From a virus (Duplodnaviria; Heunggongvirae; Uroviricota; Caudoviricetes), in the IMG/VR virus record IMGVR_UViG_2579778871_000004, positions 1-40,968 of that record: a DNA stretch of 40,968 bases, one strand, 5' to 3'. Positions 7,463-20,650 of the stretch are shown piece by piece. Each line of letters opens with the position of its first letter. Within the stretch, counting starts at the first letter, position 1. A program made the translations under genes and the position numbers. The notes beneath the pieces were generated by a model. It saw only the letters and a list, made by a program, of their open reading frames with translations. It was not told the origin of the DNA and ran no database searches.

Positions 7463-7831
7463 TCAGGCGGCTTTGATAGTCATATCATCTGAATCAAATA
7501 TTCCTGATGTATCGATATCGGTAATTCTTATTCCTTCACTACCATCCATTGGAGGCCATCCTTCCTGACCATTTCCATCATCCAAGTCGAACTCACAAAC
7601 AACACCATATGCACTTAAGTCTTTCGAAATTGCTATAAGCAGAGCATGTTGCGCCAGCATGATTAATACAGCATTTAATACAGCACCGTGTTTATTGAGT
7701 CGGTATTCAGAGTCTGACCAGAAATTATTAATCTGGTGAAGTTTTTCCTCTGTCATTACGTCATGGTCGATTTCAATTTCTATTGATGCTTTCCAGTCGT
7801 AATCAATGATGTATTTTTTGATGTTTGACAT
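7463..7831 (-). CDS. Ea10-position protein (122 aa), unknown function
   Basis: Same length and location (between cIII and the N-proximal accessory genes) as lambda ea10; acidic C-terminus. Confidence 0.45.
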   Translation of the reverse strand: MSNIKKYIIDYDWKASIEIEIDHDVMTEEKLHQINNFWSDSEYRLNKHGAVLNAVLIMLAQHALLIAISKDLSAYGVVCEFDLDDGNGQEGWPPMDGSEGIRITDIDTSGIFDSDDMTIKAA

Positions 7832-7992: not shown

Positions 7993-8021
7993 TGCCAAAA
8001 ATAAAGGCCGACTATGCGGCC
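7993..8021 (-). terminator. Rho-independent terminator just downstream of the 208-aa gene
   Basis: Minus-strand hairpin GGCCGCATAGTCGGCC followed by TTTATTTTTGG; overlaps the gene stop codon. Confidence 0.5.
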
Positions 8022-8635
8022 TCGGAAGGAAGTCCAATCATCTTATTCAAATCTTCTACCCGTAAAGCAGGAAGTGCTGTACTTGCTTTATCTGCTTCTT
8101 TTGGTAGCAATTCTTTGCTTTCAGGCCAAACTTCAATAAGTCGCTTAACTGTTGTGACTGAGTTCAAAGCAGCCCATACATTTGATTCGATATCCTTTTT
8201 CAAGGCTTCAAGGTTTTGTTGCAATGCGCAGATTTCATCAAACCTTTTTGTTATTTCGTGTTCTGCGTCAAACATGCATTTATCTTTAGTCGGAGTAGGG
8301 AGCAATATATCTTCGCCGTTGCCGTCTTTCCCATATGAATGCCATCCAACCCTTCTGCCAGATACAGTCAGATAAATTGAAGTAGAACGAACATCGTATG
8401 AGTAAAATGAACATCCCATCTTTTCAAGTTCTTCACTTATAGCCATTAAGTTTGATGCCAGCTTGTCCACTTCCTCAGTTTTCTTTTTCCCGCCAAACGC
8501 AATAACTCTGGCGTCAAGTGCAAGCTGGTTCTTTAACTTTGTTACTTCTTCAAGTTCAGTGAAAACCCCAGACTTAATTAAAGCGTTACGAGCGATTTCC
8601 TCTTTCATTCTCGTAGTTAAGCGGATTGATGACAT
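8012..8635 (-). CDS. Hypothetical protein (207 aa from ATG at 8635), pL-operon accessory gene
   Basis: Strong RBS GAGAGGAATTAAT-ATG; no family recognised; flanked by terminators. Confidence 0.6.
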   Translation of the reverse strand: MSSIRLTTRMKEEIARNALIKSGVFTELEEVTKLKNQLALDARVIAFGGKKKTEEVDKLASNLMAISEELEKMGCSFYSYDVRSTSIYLTVSGRRVGWHSYGKDGNGEDILLPTPTKDKCMFDAEHEITKRFDEICALQQNLEALKKDIESNVWAALNSVTTVKRLIEVWPESKELLPKEADKASTALPALRVEDLNKMIGLPSEAA

Positions 8636-8646
8636 ATTAATTCCTC

Positions 8647-8757
8647 TCAAATAAGTGGTTTGCTGCCTAATTTCATTTTCTGGCGACCAACACAAGTCAC
8701 CCCCATTTCACTGCGTGGCTTGCGGTAGTAAAGATTGTGCCTGTCTTTTAACCACAT
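8647..8757 (-). pseudogene. Relic of a lambda-type N gene (C-terminal ~35 codons only)
   Basis: ...YYRKPRSEMGVTCVGRQKMKLGSKPLI closely resembles the lambda N C-terminus (...YSKPGERGITCSGRQKIKGKSIPLI); no N-terminal ARM in any frame upstream. Confidence 0.4.
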
Positions 8758-8842
8758 CAGGCTCGGTGGTTCTCGTGTACCCCTACAGCGAGAAATCGGA
8801 TAAACTCTATTCACCCCTACAGAGAGCAAAAGAGAAACGCCG

Positions 8843-9424
8843 ATGAACAACTCATGGTGGCAGGAACTAATGCATTTTTTCCTGCAAGGAATGACACTTA
8901 AACAGTTGATTCATATGCTAATCATCCTGATCATATTGATTATTGTTATGCCGGTAAGCGTAAAAGAATGGATAAACCTGCATAATCCAGAAATCCTTCC
9001 TCATTACTGGATGTATTACATCCTGTTGTTTTGCGTTAGCTATGTGCTTAACGGCGTTGTTAATTCTGCTTATCACGCTGTGACTGAAAGAATTGAGGTA
9101 TTCGCTGCTCAGAAGCGCAAATCTAAAGAAGAGAAATACGTGCAAGATTTGTTTGATTCGTTAACTCTTGGAGAAAGAGCGTATTTGGCACTCGCTGTAG
9201 TCGCTAATAACCAGCTACAAACGGAAAAGGGAAGCCCTGAAGCAATCTCATTGCTCGAAAAAGGGCTTCTTATTCGGATACCTTCTGCTACTGGATATCC
9301 TGAAATCGACCGTTTTGTTATCCCAGAACGCTATAGAAATGAGTGCTACATTAGGTTTGCTGGGAAGAAAGACAGTCTTATGGATGAACTTATCGCTCAG
9401 GATAAGCACGGCAAAAACAAGTAA
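8843..9424 (+). CDS. sieB: Superinfection exclusion protein B (SieB-like membrane protein)
   Basis: 193 aa, hydrophobic N-terminal segments; rightward gene embedded in the leftward pL operon beside N, as sieB is in lambda and P22. Confidence 0.6.
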   Translation: MNNSWWQELMHFFLQGMTLKQLIHMLIILIILIIVMPVSVKEWINLHNPEILPHYWMYYILLFCVSYVLNGVVNSAYHAVTERIEVFAAQKRKSKEEKYVQDLFDSLTLGERAYLALAVVANNQLQTEKGSPEAISLLEKGLLIRIPSATGYPEIDRFVIPERYRNECYIRFAGKKDSLMDELIAQDKHGKNK

Positions 9425-9440
9425 TTAGCAAATTAATTTA

Positions 9441-9713
9441 TCATCTCGCCGTCAGTTGTTTTGATTTCCGGTAGCCTGCCGCGTAAATGGCTACGTTTGG
9501 CAGGCAAATACTTCCACTGCATTCATCTGCCTTCTTGCAGCGAAGGCTTCCGAGTGATGCTGCTTTATCTGCCCTGACGCAACCAGAGAGCTTTAGCGCA
9601 ATCTTTCGCGCCAGTCGCTGTTCTTGCATTGCCTGTTCACGTTGAGCCTGTCTGCGTGCTCTGCGGCGATTTCTGGCGTTATCGTCAGCTAGATATGTAA
9701 TGACGACTGTCAT
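9441..9713 (-). CDS. N-type transcription antiterminator (P22 gene 24 type)
   Basis: 90 aa; N-terminal arginine-rich motif NARNRRRARRQAQ; C-terminus ..YAAGYRKSKQLTAR recalled as matching P22 gp24; first gene downstream of nutL. Confidence 0.7.
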   Translation of the reverse strand: MTVVITYLADDNARNRRRARRQAQREQAMQEQRLARKIALKLSGCVRADKAASLGSLRCKKADECSGSICLPNVAIYAAGYRKSKQLTAR

Positions 9714-9821
9714 GTTGACCTCCGATGATTGACTTTGGCGGTGACGCGCCGGGTGCTTATCTTCCGGTTGCCGTCGTGCAGCTGCACTTCACGTCACCCC
9801 AAAGCCAACTACTCTTTGGTT

Positions 9822-9861
9822 CCCGCATTTCGGCGGGACAATCCCATCAATGTTAAAGAGC
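9822..9861 (-). promoter_or_regulatory. nutL (boxA GCTCTTTAACA then boxB hairpin CCCGCCGAAATGCGGG on the leftward transcript)
   Basis: boxA matches the CGCTCTTTAACA consensus; boxB stem-loop is identical to the one downstream of cro (nutR). Confidence 0.6.
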
Positions 9862-9907
9862 CTGCCAATCTGTTCCGTTTGGCTACCAGCGTCCTGCTGA
9901 TGGCTAA

Positions 9908-9995
9908 AGAATACTGTAGGTATTTTATTGTGTAAATACCCAAGGTATTTATTTTTGGTGAAATAATGATAAGCAAATGAATACAAAGGATATTT
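9908..9995 (-). promoter_or_regulatory. OL/pL: three 17-bp operators (9909-9925, 9934-9950, 9979-9995) with pL -10 TATTCT and -35 TTTACA
   Basis: Operators fit AATAC-N5-GTATT palindromes shared with OR; promoter hexamers with 17-nt spacer read leftward toward nutL and N. Confidence 0.5.
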
Positions 9996-10080
9996 ATTTT
10001 TTCGGTGTCTGCTTGTTCAGTACTTTTTATGCGGGATATGTGAAGTGGATCCCGATAGCTATTGCTGCCGGGATTATGGA

Positions 10081-10449
10081 TTAGTCAGCGAAGGTTAAGA
10101 CGAGAATTACCTTAATGATGTCTGCTACAACAGACACGGCCATAGATAAACCAAAGACGATCCAAGCCATAGAGATGTCTTCACTACCATCGTATAGAGT
10201 TCCGTAATCACTGGTGTAAGGTGTAAATGTCGCGCCTTGATACAATAGGTATAAGCTTGATCCATAGAGGATAAATGCAGATATCCCTTGTATTGCTATG
10301 ACCACTAGAATCATGAAACGAGCTGTTCTATGCGCCCAAGCCTGGCTTATTTTTTCTGATAGAGATTTCGCAATAAAAGCATGCGCTAATCCGTAAATTG
10401 TCGAGATTGCCAACATCCCAAAAAAGCTTGCTATAGCGGTTCCAACCAT
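10081..10449 (-). CDS. Small integral membrane protein co-transcribed with the repressor (rex-position gene)
   Basis: About 122 aa from ATG at 10449 with RBS AAGGGG; three predicted TM helices; starts 17 nt after the cI stop. Confidence 0.55.
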   Translation of the reverse strand: MVGTAIASFFGMLAISTIYGLAHAFIAKSLSEKISQAWAHRTARFMILVVIAIQGISAFILYGSSLYLLYQGATFTPYTSDYGTLYDGSEDISMAWIVFGLSMAVSVVADIIKVILVLTFAD

Positions 10450-10466
10450 AAGCGCCCCTTGCGTGA

Positions 10467-11183
10467 TCAAACCAGCCTTAGTTTTGTCTCAATTGCAACG
10501 CCTATAATCTTGCAGTTTCCATTGATTGGCACGAGAGGCCATGCAGGGTTAAGTCCCTTGAGGTATTTATTTCCGCCGTCGATTATCAGCTTCTTGAATG
10601 TTGCTTCGTTAGAGTCAGAAAGTTTTGCTATGACCAAGCTGCCGTTGATCGCCTCCCTTCCGGTATCGAAAAGAACGAATGTTCCCTCTGGAATGCTTAA
10701 CCCAACCGGTGCCGTCATTGAATCACCTTCCACTTTAAGCCAGAACGCATTACCTTGAATATGCGCGTCAGACTCAAGCCAAACATCTATGTCTTTAATG
10801 GTGTATGGTTCGCATGCTTCACACCACGAGCCAGCCTGGATACTGCTTAACACCGGATACCTCTTTCCTGCTCTGTATTCCCCTGCATACCTTACGTTGG
10901 CATCGCTCTTAAGGCTTTCTGCCTGTTCTGCAACCTTGGCAGAAATTGACTGGCTAAAATCAGCAATTGAGACTTGCAACAATCGTGCAAAACCAGATGC
11001 AACCTCAACGTTTAGCGCGTTTCTGCCATTAAGATAATGCCCTACCGCTCCTTGGGTGATACCCAGTTCATCAGCGATTGAGTATTGGGTTATTCCCAAT
11101 TCTTTCTTTTTTGACTCATACAAAGCCTTAAGCCGCTTAGCGTCTTCGAGCTGTTCTGTCGTCAGTGATTTTTTATTTTCCAT
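10467..11183 (-). CDS. cI: CI-type prophage repressor (HTH plus LexA-like S24 autopeptidase domain)
   Basis: 238 aa; N-terminus resembles lambda cI (LTQEQLEDARRLKA..), C-terminus has FWLKVEGDSMTAP and ATFKKLI..NPAWP motifs as in lambda cI and P22 c2. Confidence 0.9.
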   Translation of the reverse strand: MENKKSLTTEQLEDAKRLKALYESKKKELGITQYSIADELGITQGAVGHYLNGRNALNVEVASGFARLLQVSIADFSQSISAKVAEQAESLKSDANVRYAGEYRAGKRYPVLSSIQAGSWCEACEPYTIKDIDVWLESDAHIQGNAFWLKVEGDSMTAPVGLSIPEGTFVLFDTGREAINGSLVIAKLSDSNEATFKKLIIDGGNKYLKGLNPAWPLVPINGNCKIIGVAIETKLRLV

Positions 11184-11217
11184 AGCTTAATTCTAATAGC
11201 TAAGGTACTTAAACTAA

Positions 11218-11260
11218 AAATACCCTGAGTATTGATTGCTTTGAATACCTGTAGTATTCT
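11218..11260. promoter_or_regulatory. OR/pR: operators AAATACCCTGAGTATTG (11218-11234) and GAATACCTGTAGTATTC (11243-11259); pR -35 TTGATT, -10 TATTCT
   Basis: 17-bp palindromes of the same consensus as OL, between the divergent cI and cro starts. Confidence 0.55.
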
Positions 11261-11289
11261 TTGTTCATGGTTAATAACGGAGAGTGCAT

Positions 11290-11484
11290 ATGATTCGAAT
11301 GACACTTGCCGATTACGCCAAAATCCATGGACAGGCTAAAGCAGCCAGTGACTTTGGTGTAATCCAGTGCGCTATCAGCAAGGCCATTCTGGCAGGCCGT
11401 AACATCATGGTTACGGTAAAGCCTGATGGCAGTGTGATTGGAGAGGAAGTTCGTCCTTTCCCAAGCAACAAGAAAAACAAATAG
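11290..11484 (+). CDS. cro: Cro repressor (lambda Cro family)
   Basis: [49 protein letters not shown] resembles lambda Cro throughout; GGAG RBS. Confidence 0.8.
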
Positions 11485-11490
11485 TAACAC

Positions 11491-11533
11491 CGCTCTTTAA
11501 CAGTCATGGTCCTCATTCCCGCCGAAATGCGGG
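11491..11533 (+). promoter_or_regulatory. nutR (boxA CGCTCTTTAACA, boxB CCCGCCGAAATGCGGG)
   Basis: Consensus boxA immediately after the cro stop, followed by the same boxB hairpin as nutL. Confidence 0.65.
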
Positions 11534-11592
11534 AATACAACGCGCATAAGTTGATGCGCATAACTTCTTATTTGTTAAGGAAATACTTACAT

Positions 11593-11871
11593 ATGGAACT
11601 TACAAGTACTCGCAAGAAAGCGAATGCAATTACAAGCAACATCCTGAATCGAATTGCTGTACGTGGTCAGCGAAAGGTTGCCGACGCGTTAGGGATTAAT
11701 GAATCGCAAATTTCGCGATGGAAAGACAGCTTCATCCCAAAAATGGGAATGCTTCTGGCTGTTCTTGAATGGGGTGTTGAAGACGAGGAGTTGGCGGAAC
11801 TGGCTAAGAAAGTAGCCAGAATGCTGACAAAAGAAAAAGCCCCGAAAAACGGCGAATTCTTCGAGGCCTGA
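11593..11871 (+). CDS. cII: CII transcriptional activator
   Basis: 92 aa; ISRWKDSFIPKMGMLLAVLEWGVEDEE matches the lambda cII core; leader TTGTTAAGGAAATACTTACATATG as in lambda. Confidence 0.8.
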   Translation: MELTSTRKKANAITSNILNRIAVRGQRKVADALGINESQISRWKDSFIPKMGMLLAVLEWGVEDEELAELAKKVARMLTKEKAPKNGEFFEA

Positions 11872-11905
11872 TGTAGAAAGACTGGATCAATCCACAGGAG
11901 TAATT

Positions 11906-12067
11906 ATGACAAAACGTCGTAAGAAATACCAGGAAAAAGAAGAGATTCGACACCCTGATTCACCTGAGGGATTAGTGGTAGCCGCAGCAAATAACAGGGC
12001 GTTCGCAGAGCGCCTTGTTGGTGTTTACAGACTAGCCAAAGCAGGAGTGAAACATGGGCGTCGTTAA
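11906..12067 (+). CDS. Hypothetical small basic protein (53 aa)
   Basis: Hand-translated MTKRRKKYQEKEEIRHPDSPEG...; CAGGAG RBS; below track cut-off. Confidence 0.35.
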   Translation: MTKRRKKYQEKEEIRHPDSPEGLVVAAANNRAFAERLVGVYRLAKAGVKHGRR

Positions 12068-12116
12068 GTTAGCTGATTACAGGCATAACCCTGTACAACA
12101 TCAGGAGGCATCCAGT

Positions 12117-12944
12117 ATGGGGTATGTCTCTATACACCGCCAGTTTATGGACAGCAGGCTCTATAAGGACTCTCAGGCAGTACATCTTTGGCTTCACTTA
12201 ATCCTCAAGGCTAATCACGAATCTACTGTCGTCAATACGGATATCGGTCCGATAACTGTTGATCGCGGTCAGATGATAACTGGACGCCCGTCGCTGGTCA
12301 GAGAAACATTCATCCCCGACAACAAAGTTCGGAGCTTATTACGGACTTTTGAGTCGAAAGGGATGATTAATATTTGCTCGATGGGGAAGAAATTTAGCCT
12401 TTTTACAATCGTTAAATATGACGATTTTCAGGCAAAAAATTGTCCAACGGTTGTCCAACGGTTGTCCAACGCAAACACCAGTAATGGCGCGTCTCTCAGC
12501 GGGGATTGTCCAACGGTTGTCCAACGGTTGTCCATAAACAATAATATAAATAATATCTCTAATACTGACGTATTAGAGAGTGCCACAGCAGACAAAAAGT
12601 CTGACAAGAAAAAACCTTCCGTTAGCTGTCAGGATGTTGTCGATGCTTACCACGAAATCCTTCCTGAAGCGCCAAGAATCCGCGCACTGAATGACAAGCG
12701 TAAAAACCAGATCCGAACGTTCTGGCGCAAAGCCGGAGTGATAACCCGCCAACTTGACGGGCATGGGTTCACGATGCAGGACTGGAGAAATTATTTGAGC
12801 TACGTTGGCGAAAATTGCCGATGGATGTTCGAAGAGCGCCCAAACCATCAGCGCGGAACCGTCTGGCACAAAAAGGGATTTGATTTCCTGCTTAACGATA
12901 ATACCTACCTGAAAGTTCGTGAGGGTGAACACGATGACCGATAA
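12117..12944 (+). CDS. Replication initiator, O-like (iteron-binding), P22 gene 18 type
   Basis: AGGAGG RBS before ATG at 12117; the gene contains the ori iterons; followed by a DnaB-type helicase. Confidence 0.7.
   Translation: MGYVSIHRQFMDSRLYKDSQAVHLWLHLILKANHESTVVNTDIGPITVDRGQMITGRPSLVRETFIPDNKVRSLLRTFESKGMINICSMGKKFSLFTIVKYDDFQAKNCPTVVQRLSNANTSNGASLSGDCPTVVQRLSINNNINNISNTDVLESATADKKSDKKKPSVSCQDVVDAYHEILPEAPRIRALNDKRKNQIRTFWRKAGVITRQLDGHGFTMQDWRNYLSYVGENCRWMFEERPNHQRGTVWHKKGFDFLLNDNTYLKVREGEHDDR
12440..12538. repeat. Origin iterons: 6 x 11-bp TTGTCCAACGG in two triplets (12440-12472, 12506-12538), followed by an AT-rich tract
   Basis: Direct repeats seen in sequence inside the initiator gene; AT-rich stretch AACAATAATATAAATAATATCTCTAATA follows. 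Confidence 0.75.
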
Positions 12945-19402: not shown

Positions 19403-19726
19403 ATGAAGATGCCAGAAAAACATGACCTGTTAGCCGCCATTCTCGCGGCAAAGGAACAAGGCATCGGGGCAATCCTTGCGTTTGCAATGGCGTACCTTCG
19501 CGGCAGATATAATGGCGGTGCGTTTACAAAAACAGTAATCGACGCAACGATGTGCGCCATTATCGCCTGGTTCATTCGTGACCTTCTCGACTTCGCCGGA
19601 CTAAGTAGCAATCTCGCTTATATAACGAGCGTGTTCATCGGCTACATCGGTACTGACTCGATTGGTTCGCTTATCAAACGCTTCGCTGCTAAAAAAGCCG
19701 GAGTAGAAGATGGTGGAAATCAATAA
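19403..19726 (+). CDS. S: Holin S (dual-start S107/S105)
   Basis: [39 protein letters not shown]... recognised as lambda S. Confidence 0.9.
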
Positions 19727-20186
19727 TCAACGTAAGGCGTTCCTCGATATGCTGGCGTGGTCAGAGGGAACTGATAACGGACGGCAGAAAACCAGAAATC
19801 ATGGTTATGACGTCATTGTAGGCGGAGAGCTATTCACTGATTACTCCGATCATCCTCGCAAACTTGTCACGCTAAACCCAAAACTCAAATCAACAGCCGC
19901 CGGACGTTACCAGCTTCTTTCCCGTTGGTGGGATGCCTATCGTAAGCAGCTTGGCCTGAAAGATTTTTCTCCAGAAAGTCAGGATGCTGTAGCGCTGCAG
20001 CAGATTAAAGAGCGTGGCGCTTTGCCGATGATTGATCGCGGTGATATCCGTCAGGCTATCGACCGTTGCAGCAATATATGGGCTTCACTGCCGGGCGCTG
20101 GTTATGGTCAGTTCGAGCATAAGGCTGACAGTCTGATTGCAAAATTCAAAGAAGCGGGTGGAACGGTCAGAGAGATTGAGGTATGA
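19710..20186 (+). CDS. R: Endolysin R (lytic transglycosylase)
   Basis: 158 aa, recognised as lambda R. Confidence 0.9.
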
Positions 20187-20650
20187 GCAGAGTAACCGCG
20201 ATTATCTCCGCTCTGGTTATCTGCATCATCGTCTGCCTGTCATGGGCTGTTAATCATTACCGTGATAACGCCATCGCCTACAAAGAACAGCGTGATAAAA
20301 AAGTCAGTGAGCTGAAGCAGGCGACCGCCACCATTACTGACATGCAGCAACGCCAGCGTGCTGCTGATGCACTCGATGCTAAATACACGAAGGAGTTAGC
20401 TGATGCGAAAGCTGAAAATGATGCTCTTCGGCGCAAGCTTGATAATGGTGGCAGGGTGCTCGTCAAAGGAAAATGCCCTGTGCCATCCTCAGCCGAAACC
20501 TCCCGCACCTCCGGCATGGGCAATGATGCCACCGTCGAACTCTCTCCAGTTGCTGGACGAAACGTTCTCAGTATCAGATCCGGAATCATCAGCGACCAAA
20601 CATCACTGAGAGCGCTGCAGGAATACATCAACACGCAGTGCCTGAAATGA
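20183..20650 (+). CDS. Rz: i-spanin Rz
   Basis: 155 aa, N-terminal TM then periplasmic coiled coil; lambda Rz-like. Confidence 0.85.
20403..20609 (+). CDS. Rz1: o-spanin Rz1 (lipoprotein embedded in the +1 frame of Rz)
   Basis: [21 protein letters not shown] lipobox, Pro-rich mature region. Confidence 0.75.

Follow-up and report, generated by a model that had tools for sequence, protein, structure and literature searches.

The window, by which we mean the whole stretch of 40,968 nucleotides analysed here (IMG/VR record IMGVR_UViG_2579778871_000004, a virus of the Caudoviricetes), is a P22-like/lambdoid mosaic genome whose best partial matches are IME10, mEpX2, HK630 and Sf6. In its immunity region, an open reading frame on the minus strand at 10081-10449, encoding 122 amino acids according to the ORF list and its translation, lies directly after the cI repressor gene. 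This frame is the gene hkaS of coliphage HK620 (record AF335538, protein AAK28867.1, product 'unknown'; ~96% identical by tblastn), which in the HK620 record is flanked by the annotated cI, OL1-3, pL and a putative terminator, tIMM. Read from the right operators towards N, the features of the region are:

11194-11259, plus strand: operators OR3-OR2-OR1 with pRM/pR, upstream of cI, from the HK620 annotation; the operators are sequence-identical in the window.
10467-11183, minus strand: cI repressor, 238 aa, with HTH_3 and Peptidase_S24 domains (Pfam).
10455-10460, minus strand: Shine-Dalgarno sequence AAGGGG, 5 nt ahead of the hkaS ATG, read from the sequence.
10081-10449, minus strand: hkaS coding sequence, ATG at 10449-10447 and TAA at 10083-10081; predicted inner-membrane protein with three transmembrane (TM) helices.
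10049-10074, minus strand: stem-loop ATCCCGGCAGCAATAGCTATCGGGAT, 7 nt past the hkaS stop, without a U-run.
9979-9995, minus strand: third operator-like 17-mer, AAATATCCTTTGTATTC, fitting the OL1/OL2 pattern AAATAC-N5-GTATTY.
9934-9950, minus strand: OL2, HK620 annotation transferred by coordinates.
9909-9925, minus strand: OL1, HK620 annotation transferred by coordinates.
9901-9936, minus strand: pL, HK620 annotation, with a promoter scan match at 9936-9908.
9441-9713, minus strand: antiterminator N, first gene of the pL operon (Pfam N_peptide, E=1e-15; PHROG 271) and distal edge of the slot.

The cI stop codon (TGA, 10469-10467) is separated from the hkaS ATG by 17 nt (TCACGC AAGGGG CGCTT). 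A preliminary description of this DNA had already placed a frame of about 122 aa on the cI strand, starting 17 nt after the cI stop with its own AAGGGG ribosome-binding site, and the translation and coordinates agree with it. This Shine-Dalgarno sequence, as AAGGA or AAGGGG, is kept in the homologues from Salmonella, Hafnia and metagenomes, in which the rest of the spacer has diverged. An alternative TTG start at 10470, giving 129 aa, was rejected because the diverged homologues lack the extension and all have AAGGA ahead of the ATG. With a GC content of 41.5%, hkaS is below cI (45.5%) and the window as a whole (47.2%), in the manner of a cargo gene. Its conservation without indels, its dN/dS and its intact state in viral loci, all given below, show that hkaS is a genuine gene and not a chance ORF.

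A scan of positions 9400-11400 found no minus-strand terminator-like site between cI and hkaS, and an Rfam scan of 8500-12500 returned nothing relevant. As both genes lie on the same strand, 17 nt apart, with a separate Shine-Dalgarno sequence for hkaS and no intervening terminator-like site, co-transcription from pRM/pRE is the natural expectation; hkaS is thus probably co-transcribed with cI, on a maintenance transcript whose origin is presumably the pRM within 11194-11259. A canonical intrinsic terminator after hkaS was sought with a terminator scan and RNA folding and none was found, the only candidate structure being the hairpin without a U-run at 10049-10074. The terminator scan did not call this hairpin, and folding of the 166-nt region that holds it gave a z of -2.4. 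Hairpins of differing sequence occur at the matching place just after the hkaS stop in two related loci (L007 and L003), which suggests a conserved 3' structure of the cI-hkaS message that could act as a stabiliser or as a weak, non-canonical terminator.

Sites of the AAATAC-N5-GTATTY type downstream of hkaS are conserved in the loci L003 (Salmonella), L007 and L009 (Hafnia-type), and relatives from Salmonella, Hafnia and metagenomes have AAATATCCTTTGTATTC conserved in position. In the GenBank record of HK620, OL3 is instead put at the counterpart of 9956-9972, and the 'tIMM' terminator spans 9969-9999, where we found no convincing hairpin plus U-run. The third operator may therefore have been mis-annotated in that record.

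The gene sits between cI and OL/pL/N on the cI strand, that is, in the position that characterizes the accessory genes of repressor operons. In lambda the corresponding cI-to-OL interval is filled by rexA and rexB, with rexA between cI and rexB, so that the location in the rexAB position given in the preliminary description holds. By its position, hkaS belongs to a familiar and well-known class of prophage cargo.

The association of hkaS with its repressor is perfect in the material covered. At every homologue locus that we examined, be it from E. coli, Salmonella, Hafnia or a metagenome, the gene stands directly after an HK620-type cI and before the OL operators, with a cI-to-hkaS gap of 17-20 nt across the fetched loci and a cI that is 80-95% identical over its full length. 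Beyond the operators, these fetched loci carry an N gene, and in one lineage this N is of a different family. Among the IMG/VR loci that could be assessed, cI lies upstream of hkaS in 79 out of 79. The window cI itself shares 99.2-99.6% identity with that of HK620, mEpX2, HK140 and HK630, and when 393 phage records with a cI homologue were compared, the 16 with a cI at least 99% identical were exactly the 16 carriers of hkaS. The next-nearest repressors, 58-71% identical to the window cI, are followed by other contents. Behind the 65% identical cI of Erwinia phage vB_EhrS_49 there is an unrelated soluble hypothetical protein of 200 aa (L014, 2230-2832), which is another uncharacterised repressor-linked cargo gene, and no ORF with TM segments occupies the slot in Serratia OS31 or Cronobacter ENT39118. 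Phage 434, with a cI 53% identical, holds Hex there. The slot therefore carries variable cargo among related repressors, as repressor-operon accessory genes do.

With cI on one side of hkaS and, on the other, the OL operators to which this repressor has to bind, the whole interval is inherited as one block that recombination cannot easily separate, and this accounts for the perfect linkage. We considered the linkage as a sign of functional coupling to cI and rejected it on account of this location; it argues for no function in particular.

The 1.9-kb immunity region is 98-99% identical in HK140, HK620, HK630, mEpX2, HF4s, HZ41, phi296/phi367, 611R6 and two Stx2c-converting phages. A tblastn search against all phage records, 434 included, retrieved hkaS in 16 of them, and its carriers span virion types, from the podovirus HK620 to the Hendrixvirinae member HK140 (according to their taxonomy lines), and also include HK630 and the Stx2c phages. 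Among 5426 complete E. coli genomes the gene is present in 146 (2.7%), always on the chromosome and 95-99% identical, and these genomes come from many hosts; the RefSeq label is 'hypothetical protein' (WP_000233128 in one genome). More distant homologues are 82% identical (Hafnia and metagenomes) or 60, 56 and 52% identical (Salmonella and others), with zero indels. The GTDB species-representative genomes contained no HkaS relative. A word-indexed search of 5.8 billion proteins gave 12 clusters, all of them hkaS itself, and a full HMMER profile search of 1.84 billion representative proteins gave two, both of the HkaS family.

HkaS matches PHROG 6534, a family of unknown function, from end to end (E=2e-78), and this was its sole PHROG match. 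Pfam gave no significant match, NCBIfam none at E<=10 and PADLOC none. The Pfam family TssN was rejected, as its score (E=0.04, 13.7 bits) is far from the cut-off of 30.3 and is most likely a compositional effect of the hydrophobic segments. A sequence profile search of the PDB returned nothing at E<=10, and the structural model (pLDDT 92) found no informative or specific structural match. By its sequence, HkaS is thus an orphan family with a tiny taxonomic range. The preliminary description could assign the protein to no family, which stands as far as function is concerned; the ORF itself had already been named, as hkaS of HK620. A literature search retrieved no paper on an hkaS transcript or phenotype, the name matching only fungal herbarium codes, and the accession numbers retrieved none; publications on HK620, mEpX2 and the rex slot provided context only, and the DefensePredictor supplements list neither HkaS nor its cI.

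The protein is predicted to be almost entirely membrane-embedded. A Kyte-Doolittle scan with a 19-residue window shows hydrophobic segments at about 1-27, 43-70 and 93-121. The AlphaFold2 model (mean pLDDT 92.4, pTM 0.79, from an alignment of seven sequences only) has helices at 2-29, 31-38, 41-73 and 89-121, that is, three long helices and one 8-residue surface helix (31-38), together with a small beta-hairpin in 78-86. Both methods bear out the three TM helices predicted earlier. The loop 28-44 is basic (K28, K33, R41 and R44), and the loop 71-92 is acidic (D81, D87, E90 and D91), has zero basic residues and contains many Tyr. According to the positive-inside rule, these two loops point to an N-out/C-in topology.

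In the homologue alignment 43 of the 122 columns are invariant. Their share reaches 53% in the loop 28-44 and 77% in 110-122, which includes D110, K113 and the C-terminal ILVLT.A, and drops to 18% both in the loop 71-92 and in 93-109, the first part of TM3. If the predicted topology is right, the cytoplasmic side is the most conserved and the periplasmic side the most variable, and variable parts facing the periplasm would fit a surface that meets changing partners. On TM1, small residues (G3, A5, S8, G11 and S16) make up a conserved face. Neither the family searches (Pfam, NCBIfam and PADLOC) nor the hydropathy scan and the AlphaFold2 model revealed a recognisable enzymatic or soluble domain, and HkaS is accordingly predicted to be a small protein integral to the inner membrane and to have no catalytic domain.

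In the comparisons with unsaturated dS, the dN/dS of hkaS is 0.15-0.2: the window gene and its 82% identical homologue give a dS of 0.63 and a dN/dS of 0.16, and the Salmonella (L003) and Hafnia-type (L009) genes a dN/dS of 0.2. For cI, the comparison of the window with Hafnia gives a dS of 0.75 and a dN/dS of 0.03. At equal dS, hkaS therefore has a dN 4-5 times as high as cI has, and the matching dS values indicate that the two genes diverged together. The ORF is intact in all of the 80 IMG/VR viral loci, among which there are 21 synonymous and 22 nonsynonymous variants; in the close E. coli alleles the nonsynonymous variants are spread along the protein and not concentrated in the periplasmic loop. 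A few copies elsewhere appear broken: three proteins (P0006, P0007 and P0009) seem to derive from hkaS copies frameshifted near the 5' end, and in phage HF4s (MT833387, 28106-28464) tblastn finds the gene as two pieces. Thus hkaS is occasionally lost or mis-sequenced, despite the 80 intact IMG/VR copies. The dN/dS values show that hkaS is under purifying selection.

A SieB-family superinfection-exclusion protein of 193 aa (PF14163, PHROG 1301) is encoded on the plus strand at 8843-9424, convergent with N, so the prophage already has one membrane-associated exclusion gene besides hkaS; hhalign of HkaS against this SieB gave a probability of 0.1%. In the pL operon, a 227-aa protein (8012-8695, minus strand) has a full-length Nmad5 domain ('nucleotide modification associated domain 5', E=2e-70), and adjoining it (7463-7831, minus strand) is an acidic 122-aa ORF with no match in PADLOC, the sole library scanned with it. 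The lysis cassette (19403-20650, plus strand), whose roles were read from translations and gene order alone, comprises a P22 gp13-like class I holin of 107 aa (19403-19726), an endolysin of 158 aa, and an i-spanin in which an o-spanin of 68 aa, with a lipobox-like LIMVAGC, is embedded.

The preliminary description had stated that repressor-linked genes are typically exclusion or abortive-infection factors, and published precedents support it, including repressor protectors: rexAB, the tyrosine kinase gene stk of 933W and hex of 434 are on pRM transcripts (PMC3564112), and bstA lies downstream of the BTP1 repressor, in a cI-N interval that is a hotspot of mosaic diversity (PMC8585504). BstA of the Salmonella prophage BTP1 and Stk of 933W resemble HkaS in being cargo after a prophage repressor, with a presumed shared promoter, and they defend against other phages (PMC8585504, PMC3564112), as HkaS may do. 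However, both are reported to act in the cytoplasm, BstA localising to phage DNA replication sites and Stk being a tyrosine kinase, whereas HkaS has no recognisable domain.

The closest parallel in position is lambda RexB, which shares with HkaS the slot bounded by cI and OL/pL, in the orientation of cI, and which is a small polytopic inner-membrane protein expressed in the lysogen, as HkaS probably is. The comparison proposed in the preliminary description was run with hhalign and showed no homology, the HkaS alignment giving a probability of 0.7% over 20 aligned columns. Furthermore, HkaS has three predicted TM helices and 122 aa, compared to four helices and 144 aa in RexB, and in contrast to the lambda rexAB arrangement no RexA-like gene is present, since the hkaS ATG comes just 17 nt after the cI stop.

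Hex of 434 (annotated as 'repressor protection protein'; L016, 2109-2513) is likewise encoded directly after a related cI, on the pRM transcript, as is probable for hkaS. The two sequences are unrelated (hhalign probability of 0.1%, and tblastn finds only the 16 hkaS carriers), the hex gene overlaps the cI stop, and Hex is not polytopic, having only a signal-peptide-like N-terminus. This N-terminus, MIRIAALLSILLTTSANSEC, is odd, because Hex reportedly acts in the cytoplasm, where it is said to block the RecA-stimulated cleavage of the repressor; the active fragment is said to be an internal piece. Hex excludes P22 and stabilises the lysogen (PMC3564112).

HkaS also has a general likeness to small inner-membrane proteins that lack enzymatic domains, as is predicted for HkaS. 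T4 Imm and HK97 gp15 are proteins of this kind that block genome entry, and the inner-membrane protein SieA of P22 blocks genome entry as well (PMC10883804). Unlike these three proteins, HkaS has no family match in Pfam, PHROGs or PADLOC to connect it with them, and they are encoded elsewhere in their genomes, P22 sieA for instance not beside c2.

Taken together, the gene structure, the position, the predicted membrane architecture, the orphan status, the purifying selection and the linkage to cI are established, and the reading that we favour, if tentatively and as falling a little short of probable, is that HkaS is a superinfection-exclusion factor of the inner membrane expressed in the lysogen. 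Only its position and architecture lead us to infer the exclusion function. Being almost wholly membrane-embedded and without a sensor partner, the protein best fits the class of inner-membrane exclusion proteins directed at the entering phage, to which P22 SieA belongs (PMC10883804). HkaS would be translated from the cI message, made from pRM in lysogens and from pRE during establishment, and would be inserted in the inner membrane as a three-helix bundle whose cytoplasmic loop is short and basic and whose periplasmic hairpin is acidic and rich in tyrosine. Having no enzymatic or soluble domain, it would have to act through contacts within or at the surface of the membrane, and the lysogen could be protected from other phages by a disturbance of genome delivery or of a host inner-membrane factor needed by them, in the way of T4 Imm, P22 SieA and HK97 gp15. 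Against exclusion, neither Pfam, PHROG and PADLOC nor the hhalign comparisons relate HkaS to an exclusion or defence protein, the nonsynonymous variants of the close E. coli alleles are not concentrated in the periplasmic loop, and the window already carries the SieB-family gene.

The same membrane architecture would suit an abortive effector similar to RexB or a holin, in which an oligomeric channel or lesion depolarises or prematurely lyses the infected cell and so spares the clone, the trigger being a superinfecting phage that perturbs the membrane. We consider this unlikely. HkaS shares the slot of rexB, is small and polytopic, has conserved polar or charged residues (Q54, S65, S106, D110 and K113) in its predicted TM helices, and presents on TM1 the small-residue face described above, a type that packs helices in oligomers. 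Its predicted N-out/C-in topology with three TM helices is that of the class I holins (lambda S105 and P22 gp13), which have ~105-120 aa. However, hhalign detects homology neither to RexB nor to the class I holin of the window itself (probability of 0.2%), there is no Pfam holin match, hkaS lies outside the lysis cassette, and HkaS lacks the basic C-terminal tail and is expected in lysogens, whereas holins appear late in infection. Moreover, an infection-sensing cytoplasmic domain is missing as well as a RexA-like sensor gene, hkaS following cI directly, and a pore-former made constitutively from pRM would be costly. A benefit unrelated to phages, through an envelope change that helps the host, such as immunity to a pore-forming colicin or toxin or stress tolerance, seems to us quite unlikely. 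The size and the three-TM architecture would suit such a lysogenic-conversion factor, as E1-type colicin immunity proteins have about 110-120 aa and three TM helices, and so would its probable expression with the repressor in every lysogen and its presence in 2.7% of the complete E. coli genomes, in many hosts and in Stx2c phages. Against it, Pfam and NCBIfam gave no match to immunity or resistance families, no toxin gene is nearby, and the targets of those slot genes whose function is known are phages or the repressor (PMC3564112, PMC8585504).

The Hex precedent, in which a gene of the pRM transcript protects the repressor (PMC3564112), would allow HkaS to tune the lysis-lysogeny switch of its own phage, by stabilising the lysogen or biasing establishment. 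The strict one-to-one pairing of hkaS with one cI lineage (16 of the 393 phage records), the co-inheritance indicated by a synonymous divergence equal to that of cI, and the higher conservation of the predicted cytoplasmic face are consistent with this, but the location between cI and OL accounts for the linkage, HkaS is not similar to Hex, it has hardly any cytoplasmic mass with which to bind a soluble repressor or RecA, and related cI lineages do without hkaS. We regard such a role as very doubtful, whether it were exerted for instance on the control of cII/cIII by a membrane protease (FtsH/HflKC, say) or on repressor cleavage. The least probable explanation, in our opinion, is that hkaS is a passenger with little or no present function, trapped between cI and OL, where deletions would rarely be neutral for immunity. 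An orphan family of tiny taxonomic range that evolves 4-5 times faster than cI and has occasional frameshifted copies (P0006, P0007 and P0009, and the two pieces in HF4s) could be so explained; the dN/dS of 0.15-0.2, the lack of indels across homologues that are 52-82% identical, the 43 invariant columns, the Shine-Dalgarno sequence conserved within diverged spacers and the 80 intact ORFs out of 80 all argue for function.

The lack of a homologue of known function, the confident fold without a specific match and the purifying selection would also allow a bolder reading, to which we give only a small if appreciable chance. In it, HkaS is the first of a new family of membrane immunity proteins that work alone, as one 122-aa three-helix protein without a separate sensor. 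The protein would gate the inner membrane against incoming phage genomes or trip a depolarising response, and would have been built into a cro-cI-hkaS-OL module retained across E. coli, Salmonella and Hafnia.

Whatever its function, the cargo of the rex slot is already a well-known kind of element, and hkaS would be one more case of it and not a new principle. If HkaS tunes induction instead of excluding phages, it would be relevant to the induction of Shiga-toxin phages. If it excludes phages, it would represent a new and very small family among prophage-borne defences and a minimal single-gene system for the recognition of infection by a membrane protein without soluble domains. As roughly one complete E. 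coli genome in 37 carries it, Stx2c-converting prophages among its carriers, it would then bear on host-range prediction and phage therapy.
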